NCBI GenBank assembly: GCA_044892525.1
Contig: CM097885.1
Coordinates: 25,794,001 to 25,858,000 of the forward strand
Direction: 5' to 3'
Length of the DNA: 64,000 bases
Source: Schmidtea polychroa
Lineage: Eukaryota
Positions 5,250 through 60,943 of this stretch are shown one piece after another. Position 1 is the first letter of the stretch, and every line of letters starts with the position of its first letter. The position numbers were made by a program, and so were the translations under genes. The notes under the pieces were generated by a model. That model ran no database searches. It was not told the DNA's origin and saw nothing but the letters and a program-made list of their open reading frames with translations.

Positions 5250-6009
5250 TATCTTATCAATATTAGTGTGCTGTTTCTAAAGCACACTTTGTAAAATATG
5301 TTTTAATTAAAGTAATTGCTGTTTACCAAGATGACTGGCCTAATAATCTATGTGAATCACATTTTTACATATGCTTCAATTAATACTCATTGCATAGAAA
5401 TGGTTTCAAAACTGACATAATTAAAATTACAAAAGGGTTTTGTTTAAATGGCATGGCACAGTGAAATAGTTAATGATTGCAACTGCAAAGTGTCTAGTTT
5501 ATTTAAAACACTTGAGAAACATTTTTTTCAATTGTACATAATTTCATCCATCATTGAATCTCACTTGGATTTCTAATAAATTATATCCTATATATATATG
5601 TACCCCATGCTATCTCTTCTCAAATTTTTTGATTTTGTTTTTATTTTTGCAATTCCTTTCCTTTATCAACAAAGTTATAAATGAAATTTGGATTTTTCTA
5701 ATAAACTTTGTCTAATGTAATATTTTCAAGCTGTCGGCACTTCTAACAGCATTAATACAGTCAGGTCAGGCTATCCAGTGTGAATATTTGCATTTAAAAT
5801 ATCATGAGTATATTTGTAATTGATAACGAACGTTTTAAGAACATTTCCTTTCTTTAAGGGATATTTAGGGGATTTTGAACCCCATCGAGTAAAATCATAA
5901 ATAAAAAACATTTGGTTGTTTAGAGCTGACTGAATTCTTAATGTGTCGGAAATTATTATATGGAATTTCACAATTTCTTGGATTTTGGAAATTTATGATG
6001 GTCAATAAA

Positions 6010-7898: not shown

Positions 7899-8924
7899 AT
7901 GGGATTTGGAGGTATATTTTTTATAACTTTTGATTTTTTCTTTTAATGTGAAATAATCAAGATTCAAGAGGTGGTGGTCGTGGTGGTCGAGGAGGCGGTG
8001 ATAGAGGAGGATTCAGAGGTGGAAGCCGTGGAGGTGGGTCATTCCGAGGTGGTCGTGGTGGCCGAGGAGGTGCAAGAGGCGGTAAACAAATCGTTGAACA
8101 TCGTCACCCAGGAGTTTTCTATGTTCAAGGAAAAGATGAAACTTTGCTCACTAAAAATTTGGTACCAGGAGTTTCAGTATATGGTGAGAAACGCATAGCC
8201 ATAGGAGTATTGATAAATTTTTTTATCTATTTTATTTTAAATAATGAATTTAGACAGGTGATGATAAAGTTGAATACAGATCATGGAATCCTTACAGATC
8301 TAAGTTAGCTGCATCAATTCTCAACGGTATTGATGATATCCATATACCAATTGGGGCTAAAGTTCTATATCTGGGAGCATCAACTGGAACCAGTGTGTCT
8401 CACGTCAGTGACATTGTCGGACCAACCGGAGTTGTGTACGCGGTCGAATTTGCGGAAAGAGTTGGTAGAGAAATGTTGAATGTTGCTAAGAAACGAACAA
8501 ATATCGTTCCTATTGTTGAAGATGCCAGACATCCGTATAAATACAGAATGATGATCAGTAATGCTAATTAACAACTGTAAACCAGATCAATAACAGCATT
8601 TAGATCAAGTCGACACAATTTTCGCCGATGTTGCTCAACCAGATCAGTCAAGAATTGTAGCTGTCAATGCTGATTTCTTCTTGAAACCAGGAGGATACGC
8701 AGTCATCTCATTAAAGGCCTCATGTATCGATTCAACAGCAGAACCGGAAAATGCATTTTTAAGTGAAAAGGATGTCATTTCCAAATTAAAGTTCAAACCG
8801 AAATCCTGGCTGTCAATGGAACCATATGAAAGGGATCATAAGGTTTTGGTTGCTCAGTATTTGTAAGATTATTTTTTTTGGGATTTTTTAATTAATTTTT
8901 CCCATTAGACCGTACGAATCTTGA
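7899..8924 (+). CDS. FBL: fibrillarin (box C/D snoRNP rRNA 2'-O-methyltransferase), 5 exons: 7899-7911, 7962-8206, 8254-8557, 8604-8862, 8909-8924
   Basis: N-terminal GAR (RGG) domain, then [85 protein letters not shown]. Four GT-AG introns (50, 47, 46, 46 bp) give a continuous frame. Confidence 0.97.
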
Positions 8925-12452: not shown

Positions 12453-15029
12453 CAGGGCCGGGACTGACCGGCGTTCATTACGTGCGCCGCACGCAGGCGA
12501 CCAAATTAAAAGGAGGCCTGACGACCAGAAAAACAAAAAAAAATTAAAAAGCAAAATAACAATGTTAATATATAGTCATAGTCATATATATAAGAATATT
12601 TTGCTATGCGTATAGAACTAAATGATCCAGCTTGCTGGCCTTTAACACTTACCAATAAAATGCTGGATATTTTAATTGAAAAAGGCCCTATTCAAAATAT
12701 ACAATCTACATATCCACTAAATGAATTTGGAAGATCATTTTCAAAGGTTTATTTCTATAGAAAACTGCTAAATGGTAAAAAATTTAATCGCGAGTGGTTA
12801 ATCTACTCTCCAAAAAATGATGCCACATTTTGCTTCTGTTGTAAATTATTTGGCAAACAAGAAATAAAATTAGTTAATGAAGGCTTCAACGATTGGCAAC
12901 ACATATCTGACAACTTATCTCGTCACGAAAAAACATCGCTGCATATCGAAAATTGCACCTGTTGGAAAAAATTGGAATTAAATTTAAAAAGAAAAACTAC
13001 AATTGATAAGAATATGCAACGGTATTATGACGCCGAGAAAAAACGATGGTGTCAAATTGTCAGGCGCATGATATCTGTGGTACAATTTCTAGCAGGACAG
13101 TGTTTAGCTTTTAGAGGTTCTTCCAGCAAATTGTACGAAAAAAATAATGGAAATTTTCTGAAAGCAATTGAAATGATAGGAAAATTTGATGATATAATGG
13201 CAGACCACATAAAACGCGTACAAGAACCAATCGCTTTAAAGAACCCATTGCCACATTACCTGGGAAATCGCTTTCAAAATGAAATAATCACTATCCTTGC
13301 AACCCAAATTCAAAAATATATATTAACATCAATAAAAGAGGCAAAATATTTTTCAGTCATTTTGGACTGTACGCCGGACACTGGACATGTCGAGCAAATT
13401 ACAATGATTATTAGGTATGTACATATTAAAAATTATGAAGTTGAAGTAAGAGAAAATTTCATTGGCTTTTATCAAGCTGAAAAATGTACTGAAGAATCTT
13501 TTTACGACTTCTTAATTCAAAAGTTAAACTATCTTGAATTAAATATTAACGATATGAGGGGCCAAGGATACGATAATGGGTCTAATATGTCCGGAAGGAT
13601 TGAAATAAAAGAATTTTGGACAATTATCCACGAGCTCTGTTTATACCTTGCAACGCGCATACATTAAATTTGGCCATTAATGATGCAGCTAAAGTTTCGT
13701 TTTCAACGGTGGATTTTTTCAGTAATGTATCTGCAATATACAACTTTTTCAGTGGATCACCATTCAGATGGCAAGTTTTAAAGAAAAATGTAAATTCTTT
13801 AACATTGAAACAAGTTAGTGAAACTCGATGGGAAGCAAGAATTAAAGCGATTAGACCACTGCGAAATGAATTAGGTGAAATTTATGACAGCCTTATAGAA
13901 ATAGCTGAGGAATCTTCAATGCCAACAGTTCGACATGAAGCTGAATGTTTGGCAATGAAACCTAAATCTTATAAATTTATTTCTTCAATAATAATATGGT
14001 AGGAAATCTTGGAAAAGGTAGATTTTATTAGCAAAATGATGCAGAAAGTTTCTTGGAATATCAGTTCGTGTGCTGAATCAATTAAGGAAGTTTTGAAATT
14101 TTTCAAAAGCATTAGAAATGACGAAAGTTTCGAAATTTATTTGCAGATTTCTAATGAACTTTGTAAAGCACTTGAAACAGAACCGGATTTTCCTGCTGAA
14201 ATTAGTGTACGTCGCCGACATCACCGAAAACAATTTAGCTATGAAGGAGATGAAGATATTCAATTTACTCCAAAAGAACATTTTCAAATTAATTTTTTCT
14301 ATGTAATACTAGATACAGCTATTTCATCTCTTACCACCCGTTTTGAAACTTTGTCAAATTTCGAACAATGTTTTGGATTTCTATACAAATTTATTGATAT
14401 GGAACATGAGGAAATAAAAAAAAGTTGTTTCGATCTCCATAATAAATTTAAAGATGGTGAATCTTGTGATATCAGTGGTGTAGAATTATATCAAGAGTTA
14501 ATTTCTCTAAAAATTATCATAAAAGACAGAAAGCAGCCCGAAGAACTCATAAAGCTTTTATACAAATACAACTTGGAGACTTCTTTTCCAAATTTCGCCA
14601 CAAGTTTAAAACTTTTACTGACAGTCCCAGTATCTGTTGCATCTGGAGAGCGAAGTTTTTCAAAATTAAAAATATTCAAAAACCACCTGAGAACTTCAAT
14701 GACTCAAGAACGTCTCAGTAATATACCAATTATTGCAATTGAAAGTGAAATTGCTGATTCCTTAAATATTGAAGGGGCGATTGAAGAATTTGCCTCTAAA
14801 AAATCGCGTAGAGTAAATTTTTGATTGTAATATCATAGACTTATAGATGTGCCAAAACATATTAAAGTTTTATATTCAATGGTAATATGTACATGTACAT
14901 TAGATGTATAAGTATAATAATAAACATTAAGAATGAAAATTTGATTTTTTTTCTTTGATTTTGATGTGATCTCAAAGGGCGGCCATGCATACTAGCACGC
15001 AGGCGGCCATATACCCAGACACGGCCCTG
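12453..15029 (+). mobile_element. hAT DNA transposon, 2577 bp, non-functional
   Basis: TIRs CAGGGCCGGGACTG / CAGACACGGCCCTG; perfect 8-bp TSD TTGGTTGT (12445-12452, 15030-15037); empty site present in the other duplication arm. Confidence 0.97.
12606..14824 (+). pseudogene. ZMYM1-like hAT transposase pseudogene
   Basis: TTF-type zinc finger (WLIYS...FCFCCKLF), LAFRG, DCTPD, GQGYDNGSNM, CNAH, TRW, ASGERSFSKLK; frameshift near 13600 and TAG at 14000-14002. Confidence 0.95.
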
Positions 15030-15653
15030 TTGGTTGTATACTTTTATTTGATCAATGTCGAATAGCGACTACGTTTCATTCCTTTTGCAGTCCCAAATAG
15101 TTGATTATCGAATAAGTTTCATATCTGTAAGTATGTAATCATTCGAGACATCAAATACGGGATGGGAAGGAAACACAAAGGAGACATTTTGATCGAATTT
15201 CAGTGGTGATCTTCTCAATTTGTATAATCCAAAGACTTGGCCTTGACAGTAGTGTGTGAGATATTGCCATATACAGTTAGATAGACAGATCGAATTTATT
15301 GAATTTCCCATATCAGGTGTTGGCAAAGATTTGACTCTCACAACTGAAACCAAATCAATATCTTCTATAACTCTATCATGCCACATCTCAGAGTTTTTGA
15401 ATTTGTATCATCAAATAAAAATTAATTTCAACTTTAAGTGGTATTAAATCCAACATTTCGTTACTTATATCAATTAATAACTCACGACTAAACATTTCTA
15501 TGACCATTCACTTATCACGAAAAACAATTATCTACTTTCATTTGAGAAAAGCATTTTAGTAAAATTTCAACCAAATATTATATGATAAATCAAGCAATAA
15601 ATATAAAGAAAAGGTACAAAATTATATTAAAATTTATTTAACAAATCATTAAT

Positions 15654-16015
15654 TTAAAATTCTTTTTCCATGAGTATATGCGGCATTACATATTTTGATT
15701 CACCTGTAATATAATAAAAATTTGATCGCAACATAACAAATTAAACTTACAATGAATATGACGTGGAGCTTCAAACTCAAGATTCTCATTAAGAATATCA
15801 AAAGCTAAATTAAATGACCATTGTCCTGGAAGTCGATCAGTGTGATTTTTGAATGTTTTGCGTTCCATTTTATACATCAAAGCTGGGCCCAAACCAAAAC
15901 CTTTAACCATATGCTTAACAAATATATCTTCATTTTTTCCATTAGTTAACAAATATTGAAGTTTTTTATCTATAGTTTGACTTTTTTTAGTAAAAGTTGA
16001 TTCAGCAAAGCTCAT
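15654..16015 (-). CDS. POMP: proteasome maturation factor POMP/UMP1-like protein, copy 1 (exons 16015-15751, 15703-15654; 104 aa)
   Basis: Removing a 47-bp GTAAGT...TTACAG intron gives FGLGPALMYKMERK...RLPGQWSFNLAFDIL...PHILMEKEF*, matching the UMP1 motif order GLxxPLxLxME / RLPxxxSxNLxLDVL / PHxxxE. The N-terminal HPLE motif is not evident. Confidence 0.65.
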
Positions 16016-16428
16016 TTCAAAATATTTTTAAAAAACTAGAATAATTAATAATATTTAAATATTTAAACAAGGTTGATTTTTATTTATTACAATGTCAATA
16101 ATGATCATTTCAATTATATTTTTATTACATTTTTTTCTATCAACCTTAGATTATGACAGAAACTTTTTGACGAGTTTTTGTCGACATGCACTAGCGCCTA
16201 AAATTTCGGATATAATGTTATTGAAAATAAAATCAGTTAGAAGTTTAGCTAGGTTTCTGAAAATCCTTGGTAAAGAATAGTAGTACTTGACAAAAAGAAA
16301 TACTGCGCTGATTCTTTTGTAATAGTTGCTGAAATTGCTGACAAATAATTCCGTCGGCAAATTGTTTTATGAAATATCAATAGCGATTAAAGCATTAATT
16401 TAAATTTACTCGATGACATGGCCACAGA

Positions 16429-19767: not shown

Positions 19768-21037
19768 CGACAAAAACTCGTCAAAAAGTTTCTGTCATAA
19801 TCTAAGGTTGATAGAAAAAAATGTAATAAAAATATAATTGAAATGATCATTATTGACATTGTAATAAATAAAAATCAACCTTGTTTAAATATTTAAATAT
19901 TATTAATTATTCTAGTTTTTTAAAAATATTTTGAAATGAGCTTTGCTGAATCAACTTTTACTAAAAAAAGTCAAACTATAGATAAAAAACTTCAATATTT
20001 GTTAACTAATGGAAAAAATGAAGATATATTTGTTAAGCATATGGTTAAAGGTTTTGGTTTGGGCCCAGCTTTGATGTATAAAATGGAACGCAAAACATTC
20101 AAAAATCACACTGATCGACTTCCAGGACAATGGTCATTTAATTTAGCTTTTGATATTCTTAATGAGAATCTTGAGTTTGAAGCTCCACGTCATATTCATT
20201 GTAAGTTTAATTTGTTATGTTGCGATCAAATTTTTATTATATTACAGGTGAATCAAAATATGTAATGCCGCATATACTCATGGAAAAAGAATTTTAAATT
20301 AATGATTTGTTAAATAAATTTTAATATAATTTTGTACCTTTTCTTTATATTTATTGCTTGATTTATCATATAATATTTGGTTGAAATTTTACTAAAATGC
20401 TTTTCTCAAATGAAAGTAGATAATTGTTTTTCGTGATAAGTGAATGGTCATAGAAATGTTTAGTCGTGAGTTATTAATTGATATAAGTAACGAAATGTTG
20501 GATTTAATACCACTTAAAAGTTGAAATTAATTTTTATTTGATGATACAAATTCAAAAACTCTGAGATGTGGCATGATAGAGTTATAGAAGATATTGATTT
20601 GGTTTCAGTTGTGAGAGTCAAATCTTTGCCAACACCTGATATGGGAAATTCAATAAATTCGATCTGTCTATCTAACTGTATATGGCAATATCTCACACAC
20701 TACTGTCAAGGCCAAGTCTTTGGATTATACAAATTGAGAAGTTACATACTTACAGATATGAAACTGATTCGATAATCAACTATTTGGGACTGCAAAAGGA
20801 ATGCAACGTAGTCGCTATTCGACATTGATCAAATAAAAGTATACAACCAAAACTAGGTATAAAACACAACAACTGTAACCAAATGATTTTATTAACTCTC
20901 CATCAATTTTGAGTAAATTGGGATCACTTTGTTGAGTTTATAAAGAGTTTCCTTGTCTCCTTATGTAAAATTACTGAAATCTACTAAATTGAAATTATTA
21001 TTTCTACAAAGAACTTTGTACAACTCGACTATAATTT
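19768..21037. repeat. right arm of inverted duplication
   Basis: Reverse complement of 12258-12452 plus 15038-16183; has an in-frame 72-bp deletion relative to the left arm and the empty hAT site. Confidence 0.95.
19936..20297 (+). CDS. POMP: proteasome maturation factor POMP/UMP1-like protein, copy 2 (exons 19936-20200, 20248-20297; 104 aa)
   Basis: Same protein and same 47-bp intron (20201-20247) as copy 1. Confidence 0.65.
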
Positions 21038-21288: not shown

Positions 21289-22427
21289 CTCCCCTTCTTA
21301 AGACTTTTTCCACTTCTTCAGCCACTCGATTCTTCTTTCTTTCGTTCCTTCTTGTGAATGTAGTTCGAATCGATGAGGTGATAGAAATCTGGCGATTTTA
21401 TATGGGCTATCGTATTGCATACCATCCTTGTGCCTTTTCTGCGGCTCTTTACGTACGAGTACCTCCTCCCCCACCTCGAAAACACGAGTGCCCCTCTTTG
21501 TCTTATCCATAGCTCTCATAGTGTCTGCGGCTTTACTCGAGTTAAATCTCGAGTCTTCGATTCTTTCGCTTCTTGATATCTCGGCTTGTTTCAGATTAGA
21601 GTGTAGGTTAACACTCCGTCCATAAATTATCTCAAATGGTGAAAAATCTGTAGCACTTTGTCGACTGCTATTTATAGTGACCTCTATTCTGGGTAGAAGT
21701 TCGTGCCAGTTTCTCTCTTCACATCCGCCTGCCAATGTTGCTGTAATAAGATCTCTTATTGTTCGTATGGCTCTTTCGGCTAAACCATTTGATTGGTGCT
21801 GTTAAGGTGAGCTGAATTCCTGTTTGATTCCAGGTTTCTGTAGCTTCTGTCTTAGGAAATTACCTTCAAAATTTCGGCCTCTATCTGTTAAAATACTCAG
21901 GTTTTCCAAATTGATAGATCAAACTATTAAGTATTGTTTTGAAAATGGTACCTTCGTCTTGCTTTGTGATTGCAGTTAAAGAAATCAGTTTGCTAACACG
22001 GTCCACCATTACTACCATATATATATTTTTACCGTTTTGGTGGGTTAATGGTGGTTGAATGATTAAGTGCTGTTACCAGCGTAACCCAAAATACAACATT
22101 AGAGTTTCCGCTTGGTACCCGTTGAGTAATCAACGTTGGTACTGTACCAAGGGTTGAGTACTCGCAAAAAGTGAGCGCATCATGGCACTATAATTGTCGA
22201 GTATTCCATGGGTTCACGGACTACCGATAGAAGGTGTGTGTCCGATTTCTCAGGTCCCTTATCAAAATTGTTTTCCCAAAATCTCAACTCGCTAATTCTC
22301 AATCACTCGATATTTGCGGACAATACACCTTATACAACACTTGTTAACTAAATTGTATTTACACCATAACAATAAACAACCAAAAATTCAATGCGTATAG
22401 TCCAGATGACTGTTCGTATTGCTGGGA

Positions 22428-22859
22428 TTACGTGGGCGTCGCCCTTTCTTGTCGTTCATACTCGGCTAATCTGGCCTTCTTTAGCTTTTCCCGGATGTTT
22501 CGTCCTAGCCGCTTCCTTTTGGGCTTATCTTTCGCTGCCGGAGGGTAAATTGCTGCCAACTCCACGGTCAACGGCCGGATTTGACTTATTGTGGCTCCGT
22601 GAACCGCTTGTTCATTGCGTTCGGTTTCTAACGCGCGGAGTTGGAGCTTCAAGGCCCGGATCTCCATCTGATCCTGTGTGGCTTGGGTCTGCAGTTGGAG
22701 GACCTGCGCCACCTTCTTTTTCATATCCTGGGGACTAAACCAGGTGCTTTCTAGTTCCCGGCACCGTCCCTTGAGTCTGTCCACTCGGACTCGGAGATCC
22801 TCGGCCTTTTTTTGTGCTTCTTCCCTGTCCTTCCGTAGGGTCTCCAATAGTTTGAACAC
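22428..22859 (-). CDS. element-borne coiled-coil/basic protein (ORF B), probably a spliced exon
   Basis: 143 open codons, heptad-like helical stretches and a basic KPKRKR...KLKKAR tail; begins at a TTTCTTTTAG acceptor (22859) rather than an ATG. Confidence 0.6.
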   Translation of the reverse strand: MFKLLETLRKDREEAQKKAEDLRVRVDRLKGRCRELESTWFSPQDMKKKVAQVLQLQTQATQDQMEIRALKLQLRALETERNEQAVHGATISQIRPLTVELAAIYPPAAKDKPKRKRLGRNIREKLKKARLAEYERQERATPT

Positions 22860-23096
22860 TAAAAGAAATATTCTTAGATTATGTTATTACACCATGATAT
22901 TCGCTTGATAAGATCGGTACTGGTTACAAAGACATTTTATCATTATTGAAGACCAACCCATTTTTACGATAATTTATTAAAGAAGAAACTCATTCAAAGT
23001 AAAGTTCATCATCAGATCAAATCTTATTAATTCATTACAGAGGAGATTTATTCAGAGTAAAGTTCATGTCTATCGCGAGTTAGAATTGAGGACGAG

Positions 23097-23462
23097 TTAG
23101 GCCGGGTACTTGCGAGGCCTCCCCCTTTTCCGCGGGGTCGCCTCGGCCTCCTCCAGGTCCTCCAGAGTCTTTCCTTCTCGGATTGCCCGGATTTGCATGT
23201 CGAGTTTCTTCAGTCGCATCTGGGCCGCGTCCACCTCGACGGCCGCTCGGTCGCGGGCCTTCTGTAAAAGGTCGTTTCCCGGCTCCTCCTTCACCCACGC
23301 CGGGGCATCTACTTCGGGGCCCTTCCGGATCACTCGATCTGTGTAGTTCAGGTCCCGTCCCTGACTCCACCGATGGATGTGGTACCAAATGTACCGGGTC
23401 CGGAGTCGGGTGATCGTCTGCCGATCGGCTTCTTCGATGCTGCTGCTGTCAGAGTAGGACAT
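23097..23462 (-). CDS. element-borne AT-hook protein (ORF A, 121 aa)
   Basis: Intact ATG-TAA ORF, GC-rich, short coiled-coil, C-terminal RKRGRPRKY AT-hook; TTTGCAG acceptor 2 nt before the ATG and AATAAA ~45 nt after the stop. Confidence 0.7.
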   Translation of the reverse strand: MSYSDSSSIEEADRQTITRLRTRYIWYHIHRWSQGRDLNYTDRVIRKGPEVDAPAWVKEEPGNDLLQKARDRAAVEVDAAQMRLKKLDMQIRAIREGKTLEDLEEAEATPRKRGRPRKYPA

Positions 23463-23989
23463 TTCTGCAAAGTAACAATCAGGTCACTTTATACAGATTA
23501 TGTTACGAAGTTAAACACGGGATTTTGTTAATCCCTTTTCCCCCTTTTTTAAAAATTCAACGTTAACGAAAAAGAAAATTCTTTATTTTCCAGCTAACAC
23601 ATATGAGCCTAAGAACAATAGATTAAAATCACATTCATTATCAACTAGATTAAAAGGAATTTCGTCGAAAATCCGTTTGTTTAAATTAATCATTTACATT
23701 CCAGAATTTGTTTACCACTAAATGGTAATTTTAATTGCTATTTATAAATTTTAGTTTATACTTGATTAAAATGTAAAGTTTTTGGATCATCATTTTTAGG
23801 CCACTAAATTCGGGCACGCTGGGGCGACAGGTGCTAGCAACGAACTAAGCTCTTCGTCTGCTTACCTTTCCTTCGGTTGTGCTCGTTATGAGTGGTTTGC
23901 TCTGCATACAAGTAATTTATTTAATTTGCTAATTTCTAAATTTCCAGGTGATCGATATCGGATTGGGATATCGATTTTTTGTAGTTAAA

Positions 23990-24138
23990 TGTAATAATAA
24001 TACCAATAATAATAACAATGAAATAACGATACTAATAATAATGATAATAACGATAATAATAATATTAATAATAATAATAGCAATGATAGTAATAATAATA
24101 AGAATAATAATAAATTTTAACAATGGTAATGATAATGG

Positions 24139-24171
<33 letters not shown>

Positions 24172-24267
24172 CAAGAATAATAATAAATTTTAATAATGGT
24201 ACTGATAATGATGATAATAATAATAATGCTTATTATGATATTCATAATAATGATAATAATAATAATA

Positions 24268-24344
<77 letters not shown>

Positions 24345-24420
24345 GTAATGATAATGTTGATACTGTTAATAGTAATAACAAGGGAAATGATCCGGATTAT
24401 GATAACTATAATTTTATAAT
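23990..24420. repeat. degenerate (AAT)n microsatellite inside the 4.4-kb element
   Basis: Long AAT/GAT/AAC array with a perfect core around 24273-24343. Confidence 0.95.
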
Positions 24421-26928
24421 CCCATGTTTTAGAATTATAAATTTATGTTTTATAATTTGTACTTTGATAATTTTCGATTTATAATTTTAAATTTTTCAAT
24501 TTAGGGATTTACAATCTTGTAATTTATAATTATAATTTCATATTTTGAAATTTATACATTCATATTTTATAAGTTATAATTGCTTAACTTATAATTTATA
24601 AGTTTATAATCTAAAATTTATACTTTTGTATTTTGTAATTCGCATTTTCATACTTTATAATTTGAAATTTTTAGTCGACGGAATATACTTCTTACAACTT
24701 CCTTTCTATGATCAACATTGTTTTCCGCAGTACTTACAGATTTCCTGGTCCTATTTGTGGATTAAACTTCAGAGTTCTAGCGCGTCTATCGCCTATCTGT
24801 AACCAATCCTAAGTTGATTTTTATACGAAAAATTGTTTACTCTCTCTGATCAGACTTTCTCCATTAACAATTTACATTTTCAGGATCGACGTGATTTGTA
24901 CCTAGCTATCGTAATTATTTATAACTTATAGTTTTATAGTTAACAACAAGAATATTACAACTAAGAGCCTACACATTTACAAACATTTTAAAGTGGGAAC
25001 TAGATTTAAAATGTCTATCTTTACTCGGAATCAGCATATCTAGATCAAGTTATACCTGTACGTATGCCGAATATCTCTCTTATTTCTATTACTTTATCAA
25101 AGATCCTTACTACAAAATCTAGTTCGGCATATGTCTAAGTATAATTGAAATTACCATTATGGATCAACTAGTTACATTAATGTGAGTGTAGAATTGTGTA
25201 ATTTTAGGTACGAGCTCTACTCAAATTAGAACCTTAGTGTAGAGTTATTGTTCAGGATTTTAAGTGTTGAGTTTAATTGTATATTACGCAATGAGTCGGG
25301 AAGAATATTGCTTCCATGGCCCCACTGTGACCACTTCCACAAACCTTAGTGTTGTGTGCTAAGTCAACCATTTACGGCTGACCTTAAATAAATACGAAGA
25401 GTCAGACGGAGGGTTTCCTCGACCTAACTCCATGGCAGGACCATGAAGTAGTTCGACCTCCAGCTGACCCGAACAAAAGAACCATATAATAAGAGATTAA
25501 TATAATATAAATAATGCATGTTTGCATGTACTATGAGGATTTTAACAAATTGGATGCAGGACTGAACAACGACGCAGGAATACCAGTACGCCGTTGAACA
25601 TTCGTACATCAAAAAATTAAAAAAAAAAAAACATCAAATATGGAATTACTTTAATCTTAAATAAATCATAACTACATGATAATAATAAAAAATTCAATCA
25701 TATATACTCACTATGTAGATTGGAAAAGTTTTTGTTCAAAATTTGGCATAAAATAATGATTGATTCTGACTGAAACGTGTCAGTATATATACCTATTTTG
25801 TACACGTGTATGTATTGATGCATTAAAACAAACTCGAATTCTTTTTATTCCAGAATTTTCTATTTTGCGATTTTGATATTTTTAATGGCAATTTTTGTGC
25901 CATAATTTTTGTTTTTATTTTTAAATTTTTATTTTTTAATTATTTTTCGTTAATTTGACGTCCATGATGGATTTGGAACGGTTCCAGAACATTCTATTTT
26001 ACTTTTAATTTAATTTTTATTCTAACTGGTGTTTTATGACTTTCTTTTTAAGATTTATTATTTTTAATACTAATTTATTTATTTTCTCTAACTTTTATTG
26101 TTCTAGCTGGCTTTTGTGATGGTAATCGCCATTTTAATGGAATGTTCTGGGTTTTTCTGGATTTTTTTCGGTTTTTATCGTCTTTTAAGTTATTCGAGTC
26201 TGTTTTATGTTTATCTGTGTTTATTTGGTTATTTTCGAGTTCTATTTTGCATAACCTCTTGCTTTTGGTATAATTTTATTTAATTTCTGTGTTTAGGTTT
26301 TTGTTGTTTTTTCCTTTAATTACTATTGTTTATTTGGTGTAGTTTTTAATATTTAACTATACTTTTTGCTTTTTACATGCTGTGTACTTACACATTTCAG
26401 TCACAATTAGAAATTTGGGTCTAGAAGTCAGTTCTAGCCCAACAGTTTATTTCCATGTAAGCCACATCTATAACAATCTGTTCTAGGAATTCAGAGCAAT
26501 ATCTAAGAATAAATGTTTCCTTGGTTCTTGTCTGATCGATCTTTCTCTTAGCGCAGATCTCGCAACATCGTAAACAGAGTTGGATTGTTTCTTGCATTTT
26601 CGGCCAATAAAATATCTATAAAATATCCATATAATGAAATAATTTCTTAAATCCAATGTGACATAGTTCTTCATGTAGCGTTGTTGTTAACAGGCCTGCA
26701 AATGTTTCTGGGACTAACATTAAGATATTTTTGTTCTTTTCTACTGTTATTAATCCTCCATCAATTAGTGTATTTTTTACGTTAAAAGGAAAACAATTCT
26801 TTTTCTCCCGTGTACATCCATTTTCCAATATCTCTCGCAGCTCTCGAAACCGAATGTCCTTTTGTTGTTGTTCCCATACTTTTTCCATAGCTTCTGTTCT
26901 TTGGATAGTATATATATATATATATATA

Positions 26929-34342: not shown

Positions 34343-37300
34343 CAGCGCCGTACTATCGCAAGTGCAACAAGTGCAATCGCACTGGGCCCCCTATTTTTGA
34401 GGGGCCCAAATATTAAATACATTAGAAAAACTTCTCCAATACCATAAATTACTACGAATTGAAAGAAAAAAAAAATTTGAAAATTCAAAATTCGTTTAAC
34501 TTTCAAAAAAATCTAGTTGGCAACGATTTAATTTGAAACAAATATACCTAATAATTCAGTTGTTTTTTGCTTCAAATTGTTATCTTCTGTTTGTTTATTA
34601 TATCGTCTTATTAGTGAAAAGTAATATTATTTCAAAGTTATAAACAGAAATAAGTTTTATTTTAATTTTAGGTTTAACGATTCGTTTATATATTTAATAA
34701 ATTGTAATTTTCACTTTTCAAATTAAATTTGTGTTAACGAACATAGTTTGAAAACATATACATACATTCAAATTTATAGAAGAAATACATCAGGTAAACT
34801 GTTGTTTTTGTAAATTTTTTCACCTCAATTAGAAATGTCGAAAAGATGTTATGAAAGCGGCGCACAAAAAAGAGCAAAACAGGTCCGGAAATCATCAGAA
34901 TTAAATAGGCTTGCTGGATCATTAGATAAATTTTTTAAACGAGGCGAAAGTTCATCAATTTCGAACACTAATTTAATTGAAATATGTAATTCAAATAGTA
35001 TGTCTCAACTTGAAAACAATGTAGAAGAAAATGTCAATGAGCCACAACTTCAGAATATTGATGAGCGAGAATGTAGATGATGAATCAGGAACCAATTGCG
35101 TAAATATTGACGATATTTTATCTGATAATATTTCAGAAATTAGTAATAATCCACAAATAGAGAGCAGTACTTTATCTGCTAAATTTAAATATGATATATT
35201 AGATACTGCAACTTGGCCTGTTGAAATCGACAACAAACAACGGATGTTTTTGGTCTAGCAGTCACCAAAATGTATAGAAGGTATCTATTATAAAAGAAAT
35301 TCTCAAGGAAGATGTTTCAGTGACGCGTTTTTTTATCGGCAAATGAAAAATGGTGAAAAAGAATTAAGAAAATGGCTTCTATATTCTAACTCAACAGGAA
35401 ACATTTTCTGCTTTTGTTGCCGTTTGTTTTCATCGATAAAAATAAGCTTAACTTATGGCGGATTTTCTGACTATGCACACACAGGAAAACGGTTATCTGA
35501 ACATGAATCTTCAAAGGAACATCTTGAATCAGCGTATAAATGGCGAATTCTAGAATTTAATATTAAACGTAGAACAGGAATAGACCATCTCAATGAAGAT
35601 GTGTTCAATAAAGAAAAACGAAGGTGGCGAATAATTTTGAAATGTATAGTAAAAGCGGTATTGTTTTTAAGTGAACGAAATTTAGCTTTTAGAGGCAGCA
35701 ACGAAAACCTTTGTGAACCGAATAATGGTAATTTTTTGGGAGTAATTGAATTAATTTCTGATTTTGTTCCAGAACTAAAAATGCATTTAAAATCAATAAC
35801 TGAAACGGAAAAAAGAGTGACGTCATATTTTTCCGCTAAAATTCAAAACGAGATTATATTACAACTAGCTTCTAAAGTTTTACATATAATAGTAAATAAT
35901 ATTAAATCATCAAAGTACTTTTCAGTTATGATAGATTCAACACCGGATTTTCGCAAAAAAGATCAGTTGTCCATCATTATTCGGTATGTTAAAATAACGG
36001 ACCAAAAGCCAAGTATTCAAGAAAGTTTCTTAAGCTTTGTAAATATATTGTCCTCAACTGGCGAAAATTTAGCAAATGTCCTTATTGAGGAATTAAGAGT
36101 ATTGGGAATCAAAATTGCTGATTGCCGTGGTCAGTCGTATGACAACGCAAGCAATATGAAAGGAGAATATAAGGGAGTGAAAAGTCGAATTTTAGAAATC
36201 AACAATAAAGCATGGTATACACCGTGTGGTGGACACAACATCAATTTAGTAATAGGAGATAGTGTAAAAAACACTATTAAAAGTCAGAATTATTTCACTA
36301 CATTAAATAATATATATAAGATTTTTGCTGCATCGACAAAGCGATGGGCTATTCAAGTAAAATATTTAAAAATTAATCTGAAGGCGCCCAGCGATACTCG
36401 ATGGGAATATCGCTTTAAAAGTATAAAATTCGTGAAATACCAGATTAAAGAAATTAGTCTTGCGCTAGATGAACTTAAAAATACCTACCCAGATTGTAAA
36501 ACTCTTGCTGCATCTTTAATAAAACAAATAAATTCTTATGAATTTATTGTATTAACAACAATTTGGTATCACTTGTTATCAAAGCTTCACATTTTTAGCC
36601 AATTGCTTCAGCGAAAAGATATGGCAATTAATATTGCATTACAACATACAAGTGCTATGCTGTTATCGCTTGATGATTTTAAAAAAAATTTCGAAGAAAT
36701 TATAAAAGAAGCCCGGGAGTCATCGGTTGCAATAAATGCAATAGCACAGTTCACAGAACGGCCTCGTGATACGCAAATATTAACAAGTAGAAACAATGAA
36801 TGTCTTGATAAATCACCAGAACCTAGTTTACCATTACCAAAACGGAGAGTACGTAATCTCAAAAGATTGGCTGACTACTGTTATTATACAGACCATAAAA
36901 ATAAAGCAGATGATAAATATAACTATGGCGATGTTATTAGTACAGATGATATACCAGATAATGAAATTGAACCGTCAGAAGAAGAAATTGAACCAATTGA
37001 ATGCTGTGAAGATATTGATATATATGATCTCATTCCTGAAATTGATGATGAGTGTAATCATCTAACTATAACTGCTGAAGATAAATTTAAACACTCTTAT
37101 TTTTATAAATTAATCGATATTGTAAAAGATTCATTGCAAGAACGATTTGAATCGTATAATTCTTTAAATGAAAATTTCGGTTTTCTTTTCGATAATAAGA
37201 AGCTAAAAACTATGAATACAAATGAATTCAATGCTAATTGTACAAATCTGGTCAAGCACTTAGAAGGCGATATTGAAGAAGTGGAATTTAAAAATGAACT

Positions 37301-37731
37301 TTCTATTTTAAAATATATTTTAGAAGATAATTATACTATTATGCAGAATTTTCAATTCATTTTAGAAAGGAATTTGGAAGAATTATTTCCAAATGTATGT
37401 ATCGTATATCGAATAATTTTAACAATACCCATTACAGTTGCTCATTGTTAACGATCTTTTTCAAAATTAAAATTAATTGAAAATTATCTACGGTCTGCTA
37501 TGTCGCAGGAAAGACTTTCTGGATTAGCAATACTGTCAATTGAAAATGCAACAGCCAGAACAATTGATTACAATGACATAATTGATGAATTTGCCAGCAA
37601 AAGAGCTAGAAAAATTACTTTATAATTGCTATTATTTTTTTAAATACAATCAATAAAAAATTAATTCAAATTTAAAAAAAAAAATTTTTTAGTTTCTGCA
37701 CAGGGCCCCCAAAAGTTACAGCACGGCGCTG
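34343..37731 (+). mobile_element. hAT DNA transposon, 3389 bp, full-length but inactivated
   Basis: TIRs CAGCGCCGTACT / AGCACGGCGCTG; perfect 8-bp TSD ACCAAACG (34335-34342, 37732-37739); subterminal GCACWGGGCCCC at both ends. Confidence 0.97.
34835..37625 (+). pseudogene. ZMYM1-like hAT transposase pseudogene
   Basis: MSKRCYESGAQKR start, FCFCCRLF, LAFRG, DSTPD, GQSYDNASNM, CGGH, DTRW. Frameshift near 35060, TAG at 35256-35258, and TAA at 37449-37451 replacing the Glu of C(E)RSFSKLK. Confidence 0.95.

Positions 37732-40058: not shown

Positions 40059-60943
<20,885 letters not shown>

Follow-up and report, generated by a model that had tools for sequence, protein, structure and literature searches.

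Two putative leader-spliced genes within the solo long terminal repeat of a Burro-type retroelement in Schmidtea polychroa

Accessory coding sequence inside a long terminal repeat (LTR) is known from retroviruses: sag of mouse mammary tumour virus (MMTV) lies wholly, and nef of human immunodeficiency virus 1 (HIV-1) partly, within U3 (PMC12789967). In Drosophila gypsy the start codon of env is made by splicing (PMC2585583; bioRxiv 2023.08.03.551782). The giant gypsy-like elements of planarians, Burro/GYPSM1 (Jurka 2007; Grohme 2018), exceed 30 kb and encode one polyprotein of about 4,800-4,900 residues (reviewed in PMC6431247, section 7); strong expression of Burro elements has been reported for the stem cells of planarians (PMC6884822), and one of their products, the anti-apoptotic Burro1 inhibitor of apoptosis protein (B-IAP, Lee et al. 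2026), is said to help the host (reported second-hand in PMC13465017). Here we describe a 4,407-bp LTR, 22038-26444, in a 64,000-nucleotide stretch of the Schmidtea polychroa genome (GCA_044892525.1, contig CM097885.1, positions 25,794,001 to 25,858,000; the window). A sequence-only reading had taken it for the solo LTR of a giant retroelement that carries its own spliced genes. Two open reading frames (ORFs), here called A and B, lie within it.

A nucleotide search of the source's own 781-Mb assembly was made and 37 of 9,421 candidates were scored. Among these 37, copies 92-97% identical to the window LTR were mostly single, and copies 86-87% identical to it were direct repeats about 30 kb apart. 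The 47 LTRs with both ends inside the fetched loci were then sorted: 17 were followed by a primer site, 12 came after a shared internal junction and 18 were unpaired. Every unpaired complete LTR (18/18) had a 4-bp duplication of its own, and in all ten pairs one 4-bp duplication surrounded the whole element and was common to both LTRs. Eight pairs measured about 34 kb, one about 32 kb and one, internally deleted, about 13 kb. As the two LTRs differed by only 0-3 bases in nine of the ten pairs, these elements are young. The 13-kb element (L016/L017/L100, G000:C3:123.56-123.58 Mb) has identical LTRs and a whole-element duplication and is possibly a non-autonomous derivative.

By one diagnostic motif the window's subfamily has about 30 copies, among which a single direct-repeat pair, L034/L035, was seen. 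Its LTRs are 97-98% identical to the window LTR in their distal part, and its decayed interior is 91-95% identical to that of the pair carrying the long frame described below. Across the LTRs L034-L047, U3, ORF A, ORF B and the terminal block differ in their identity to the window copy, a mosaic structure that points to frequent recombination between subfamilies. The proposal of a giant retroelement is borne out by these results: the direct-repeat pairs around gag-pol that it called for exist at 32-34 kb, L034/L035 being the closest, and the 4-bp duplications that it suggested tabulating are found in every pair and every unpaired complete LTR.

The ends of the insertion were also placed correctly. 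The termini are TGTTGGG...CCCACCA on the minus strand, as proposed, and the GTTT that flanks them is single at the insertion site in all nine other copies of the host gypsy examined, so that it is a true target duplication and fixes both boundaries exactly. Scanned separately, the flanks of the LTR gave matches to Integrase_H2C2 and rve. The insertion had been called clean, with the integrase frame restored around it; the host is indeed in phase across the site, but its integrase is broken again to either side, so that the word applies to the insertion alone.

A primer site lies 8 nt past the LTR end; its sequence complements that of a tRNA-Pro(TGG) gene in the same genome. Genome-wide, 431 LTR-primer-site junctions were found at up to one mismatch, and the reversed control gave none. 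A primer-binding site after CCCACCA had been predicted and is present; the polypurine tract predicted before TGTTGGG was not found ahead of the 3' LTR, the sequence common to 12 3' LTRs not being purine-rich. The plus-strand primer is likely, on this sequence, to be atypical. An imperfect terminal inverted repeat reaches a few bases past TG...CA (L011 5831-5860; L033 ~5630-5690) and, taken with the 8-nt offset and the missing tract, hints at unusual end processing. The tRNA-Pro(TGG) that fits the Burro primer site occurs in a tandem array with a 475-bp period (G000:C1:130.90-130.95 Mb, L096-L099), and its 3'-end pattern has 2,164 genomic matches.

Between the LTRs of one pair there is a single frame of about 4,790 codons (2,054 + 2,737 in adjacent pieces), in which Pfam recognised a CCHC gag, MATH, a viral fusion glycoprotein env, protease (PR), reverse transcriptase (RT), RNase H (RH), integrase (IN) and ankyrin. 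The domain order PR-RT-RH-IN of this related full-length element is that of Gypsy/Metaviridae. Its accessory ORFs encode a RING protein upstream and TRAF-MATH, BIR-RING and coiled-coil proteins downstream. A length above 30 kb, multi-kb LTRs, a polyprotein of about 4,800 residues with CCHC gag, MATH, in-frame env, PR-RT-RH-IN and ankyrin, and a BIR-RING accessory gene are all features of Burro/GYPSM1 as described in PMC6431247. Judged by its architecture against that description, the element is Burro-type, a class already published. BCL2-like, dUTPase-like and Ubi/SUMO-like motifs were not listed by Pfam; those in PMC6431247 are partly HHpred finds. The difference lies in the LTR, as section 7 of that paper mentions no LTR-internal protein genes, leader-exon splicing or AT-hook protein.

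By itself the window copy, with imperfect inverted ends and no transposase, could be taken for a non-autonomous DNA element whose GC-rich ORFs are open by chance. This is refuted by the direct-repeat pairs around gag-pol, the 431 primer-site junctions, the complementarity to tRNA-Pro and the frame-specific selection described next, which leave it a negligible probability. That 22038-26444 is instead the solo LTR of a Burro-type element is close to certain.

The ratio of nonsynonymous to synonymous substitution rates (dN/dS) was calculated against the window copy from ungapped comparisons with more than 25 differences, covering subfamilies down to 61-66% amino-acid identity. For ORF A it was 0.16-0.48 (37 comparisons), against 0.65-3.6 in shifted frames, and for ORF B 0.06-0.24 (37 finite, 2 saturated), against 0.70-6.0. 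Compared with L011, both showed an excess of third-position changes (p 3e-4 for ORF A, 3e-8 for ORF B). Protein searches of the genome gave at least 150 scored copies per ORF; 145 of the 150 best matches to ORF A and 146 of the 150 to ORF B had no stop, figures biased upwards as these are the best scorers. A YAG acceptor was found ahead of ORF A in 56 of 57 copies and at the start of ORF B in 60 of 61, each in 19 distinct upstream contexts, against a YAG background of 0.018 per base. No copy of either ORF was found in the internal pieces examined. The frame-specific dN/dS and the conserved acceptors uphold the claim that the two GC-rich ORFs are coding sequences, and it is very probable that A and B are two real LTR-encoded proteins under purifying selection between subfamilies.

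The signals upstream suggest how they may be expressed. Twelve diverged LTRs keep a TATA box (at 25791 in the window), a short stretch with an ATG and, about 80 nt past the box, a donor. Of 51 copies carrying the TATA motif, 50 had the donor; it was preceded by A in 48 of these, by G in one and by T in the one copy that has no ORF B. G is the usual base before a donor; the A found in its place suggests selection for A|TG as the start codon of ORF B, which has no ATG at its start, yet is conserved over its first 40 residues.

It seems probable, from these signals, that a leader exon is spliced to the ORFs with an A|TG start for ORF B. The LTR promoter would make a leader exon of about 50 nt, which would be joined to any of a series of acceptors further downstream, starting with two inside the LTR. 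Use of acceptor A would yield ORF A, which has an ATG of its own; use of acceptor B would complete the start codon of ORF B. The internal accessory ORFs appear to follow the same acceptor-before-ATG design: AG stands 0-3 nt ahead of the ATG in most of them, including RING and BIR-RING, and AATAAA lies within about 100 nt past the stop in five of the seven examined, in an AT-rich context. Both features fit one leader spliced to many alternative exons. AATAAA or ATTAAA was also found within 140 nt past the ORF A stop in 12 of 13 copies, a weak signal in an AT-rich context. The sequence-only reading had listed splice signals without coordinates. The donor at 25711 is conserved; the most textbook-looking donor, at ~23866 (AAG|GTAAG), is not, being GC in L016 and missing in many of 16 copies. 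The flatworm spliced leader supplies an AUG, and this was considered as a start, but translation from it would run into both ORFs in the wrong frame and the idea was rejected.

Relative to the ORFs both acceptors have phase 1, and in most lineages the leader ATG is in phase with the ORFs, so that N-terminal extensions are possible. A and B might then be real exons joined to others, internal or yet unfound, into longer proteins, the A|TG being a coincidence. Both ORFs stop at conserved positions, however, the ATG of ORF A is invariant in 14/14 aligned copies and several lineages with a disrupted leader frame still keep the final A of the leader, all of which make this improbable.

The position of the transcription start has also to be considered. 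The terminal block of about 240 bp is 94-95% identical to paired LTRs that elsewhere are 84-87% identical, and is as long and as well conserved as R-U5 usually is, where an R-U5 of 3.7 kb would presumably require unusually long strong-stop DNA. The genomic RNA could start near this block, with all that precedes it being U3 and A and B being carried there like MMTV sag, which lies wholly in U3 beside upstream U3 promoters (PMC12789967); they would then be expressed mainly from the 3' LTR through upstream donors or a secondary U3 promoter. No TATA box or conserved sequence was seen just upstream of the block, and the TATA-leader-donor unit is kept in 12/12 diverged LTRs, one of which carries neither A nor B; we consider this arrangement rather unlikely. 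With MMTV sag and HIV-1 nef the present ORFs share their place in an LTR and, as predicted here, expression from spliced RNA (PMC12789967). They differ in that two whole genes are present, 2.3-3.3 kb past the putative promoter of the LTR, that their donor and acceptors are also in that LTR, that the element is an invertebrate gypsy and that no homology was found. A short upstream exon that gives part of the ATG, as predicted here, is shared with Drosophila gypsy env, in which the split is AT|G and the gene internal, rather than A|TG and an LTR-internal coiled-coil gene (PMC2585583; bioRxiv 2023.08.03.551782).

Several points weigh against leader-spliced LTR genes or against a working gene cassette in every solo LTR. 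The splicing is read from the sequence and no spliced junction was seen. In assembled contigs of uncertain kind (four runs, covering 22038-23980 only) none of the 15 joints listed, of 20, fell at the predicted acceptors, a comparison that, with the leader exon outside, bears neither way. Two exact-pattern searches of low sensitivity found no genomic copy with the leader directly beside ORF B or ORF A. The donor was sought as the first GT[AG][AG]G 45-150 nt past the TATA motif, which makes its count partly circular. The leader ATG, in phase with ORF B in most lineages, is not so in the window's subfamily, and this could lower ORF B translation. AATAAA occurs within 260 nt past ORF B in 3/14 copies, so that there is usually none. 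The dN/dS comparisons are not independent, many copies being near-identical, and copies with 25 differences or fewer were excluded. Some copies are without an ORF, and the acceptor is lost in one copy for each ORF. The AT-hook score of ORF A is 12.9 bits against a Pfam cut-off of 17.4, and the functions suggested for both proteins are read from motifs. Private substitutions in solo copies were synonymous in 9/33 cases for ORF A (10 of 11 copies usable, p 0.35) and in 10/32 for ORF B (9 of 11 usable, p 0.19). Finally, the L073 lineage, with 71% polyprotein identity, has neither ORF; they are therefore not required in cis in every lineage. This lineage (L073/L103, G000:C1:19.48-19.50 Mb), whose 5.1-kb LTR has the same ends, promoter and hairpin block, offers a natural comparison for the roles of the ORFs.

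As the private substitutions of solo copies are indistinguishable from neutral, selection appears, with low power, to act on the replicating lineage and not on the solo copies. A Burro-type element inserted in the integrase of another gypsy and one LTR is left, most simply through LTR-LTR recombination; the two accessory proteins appear to be kept by selection on the replicating element. On this model the ORFs, with the promoter, donor and acceptors, would ride along as passengers in solo LTRs until these decay. In 11 solo copies of the window's subfamily, ORF A was open at full length in nine and ORF B in eight, with one more having an altered tail. The earlier claim that every solo LTR would leave an expressible gene cassette fits the open frames of most of these copies, but is too strong in view of the losses, the near-neutral decay and the L073 lineage. 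Such open frames, the high expression reported for Burro in planarian stem cells (PMC6884822) and the help that B-IAP is said, second-hand (PMC13465017), to give the host would also suit cassettes domesticated and maintained by the host as dispersed genes. The youth of the copies (92-97% identical) accounts for the open frames, though, and the 9/33 and 10/32 synonymous changes do not differ from neutral at this low power; domestication is accordingly given a very small chance. We put the probability of the whole explanation, leader-spliced accessory genes in the LTR of a Burro-type element, at roughly two in three (0.68). Expression from the solo LTRs themselves may occur, at somewhat less than even odds.

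ORF A was predicted to form two long helices, with a predicted local distance difference test (pLDDT) score of 67.5. Its C-terminal PRKRGRP is invariant and the hook core is the same in 14/14 aligned copies; in nine of the 14 the weak top Pfam match was the AT-hook (PF02178). AT-hooks bind the minor groove of AT-rich DNA, and AT tracts of 74-87% surround the LTR promoter and first intron. This suggests, tentatively and within the main model, that ORF A may be a small nuclear factor on the element's own LTR, as an activator or a silencing shield. A role in the integration complex seems unlikely, and one on host chromatin rather less likely again. HMGA proteins have three AT-hooks and an acidic C-terminal tail. 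ORF A resembles them in its small size, its RGRP core with basic flanks and its acidic stretch; it differs in having one C-terminal hook-like motif below the Pfam cut-off, an acidic N-terminus in place of the tail, two long predicted helices and no homology found.

ORF B was predicted to be a long coiled coil (pLDDT 83). As it is basic and helical, its likeliest role, still tentative, would be that of a nuclear coiled-coil protein regulating chromatin or the RNA of the element. A Rev/Rex-like part in exporting the 30-kb RNA unspliced, by way of the hairpin block, is a lead only and on balance improbable. The block folds with a z of -2.89, both sides are changed in four of 45 pairs across 12 copies, and Rfam gave no match for it.

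No homologue of either protein was found in a near-length protein search. ORF A also had no match when its alignment was searched against longer proteins, among 1.84-billion representatives or in metagenome and viral contigs. In the protein atlas there was no usable match for ORF A and only generic coiled-coil clusters for ORF B. Fold searches gave no match at E 0.001 for either (for ORF A the best Z, 4.6, is not meaningful), and PDB sequences gave nothing at that threshold, the best being a liprin-beta coiled coil at 0.0024 for ORF B. Planarian proteins may be poorly covered, and missing homologues do not prove novelty.

The other parts of the LTR that the sequence-only reading had described, namely the A-rich tract, TATA motif, hairpin block, AAT array and 3' block, are all present and are listed with the remaining features in Table 1. 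An AATAAA at ~25849, which precedes the TATA box by about 58 nt, is kept in 11/12 aligned LTRs; in HTLV-type elements a U3 poly(A) signal is used across a structured R (PMC12789967). The promoter-proximal motif CAC(G/A)TTTCAGTCA (~25780) has an inverted copy near 26403, at the outer end of the LTR, which is a possible outward-facing promoter. Folding of the terminal block is weak (z -1.70).

Table 1. Positions in the window of the solo LTR, its parts and the flanking host element
Feature	Positions	Strand	Basis or remark
Host gypsy integrase, zinc-binding part, preceding the insertion	26445..26615	-	domain scan
Target-site duplication, copy preceding the LTR	26445..26448	.	GTTT
Solo LTR of Burro-type giant gypsy element, TG...CA ends	22038..26444	-	own target duplication and genomic copies
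A-rich U3-like region, 52% A	25795..26444	-	composition
TATA box and initiator-like motifs, putative start site	25755..25791	-	kept in 12/12 aligned diverged LTRs
Putative leader exon	25712..25765	-	upstream ATG 25749, donor GT 25711; splicing predicted
Conserved hairpin-rich block in putative first intron	25165..25480	-	folding, alignment
AT-rich degenerate 15/22-bp repeats	24435..24670	.	repeat analysis
AAT microsatellite	23992..24355	.	repeat analysis
ORF A exon, 121 aa	23097..23466	-	YAG-nn-ATG acceptor; acidic N-terminus, C-terminal PRKRGRPRK AT-hook-like motif
AATAAA hexamers past ORF A stop	22973..23052	-	AT-rich context, weak
ORF B exon, 143 aa	22428..22860	-	YAG|TG acceptor; coiled coil, basic KPKRKRLGR tail
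Conserved terminal block, adjoins primer site in full-length elements	22038..22279	-	alignment
Target-site duplication, copy following the LTR	22034..22037	.	GTTT
Host gypsy integrase, start of core domain, following the insertion	21884..22036	-	domain scan

Elsewhere in the window, 15030-16183 and 19768-20850 form a near-perfect inverted repeat (98-100% over ~1.1 kb), beside which lies a broken hAT transposase (12594-14824); a second hAT ORF is at 35259-37451. Fibrillarin-like exons at 7952-8571 appear to belong to a host gene amid repeats, and 41000-43500 is an extremely AT-rich tract (~8% GC) of degenerate repeats.

The plant elements Ogre and Retrosat2 also have LTRs of several kb, numerous solo LTRs and extra ORFs with no function assigned; these ORFs are described as internal or upstream of gag-pol and not in the LTR (PMC6431247; PMC3485330). 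The element class and the formation of solo LTRs are known; the new part is the two genes inside the LTR. No account of genes inside Burro LTRs was found in the literature searched, which took in parts of PMC8532177, PMC11410931, PMC6884822 and PMC13465017, the primary Burro papers and Repbase being outside its scope. It is quite possible, if against our expectation, that the Burro LTR ORFs have been annotated before, and if the Burro papers already annotate both, the novelty shrinks to the splice model. In its fullest form the proposal would make the LTR a self-contained, alternatively spliced and undescribed two-gene unit downstream of its own promoter (R/U5), with the ORF B start made by splicing and solo LTRs producing an orphan AT-hook chromatin protein and a coiled-coil regulator whose action in trans would reach every Burro copy and possibly AT-rich chromatin of the host; in this extent it is doubtful.

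Solo LTRs are usually seen as leftover promoters. What remains here is a promoter with a donor, followed by two acceptors, each with a selected ORF that is present in at least 150 scored copies, and if the ORFs are expressed, excision of the element would leave the ORF A and ORF B genes unsilenced. The predicted design of one leader and many acceptors would also account for the expression of about ten accessory genes from a gypsy element of 34 kb. Given the reported activity of Burro in stem cells and its anti-apoptotic protein, two further predicted nuclear proteins of the element would be direct and cheap targets for knockdown.

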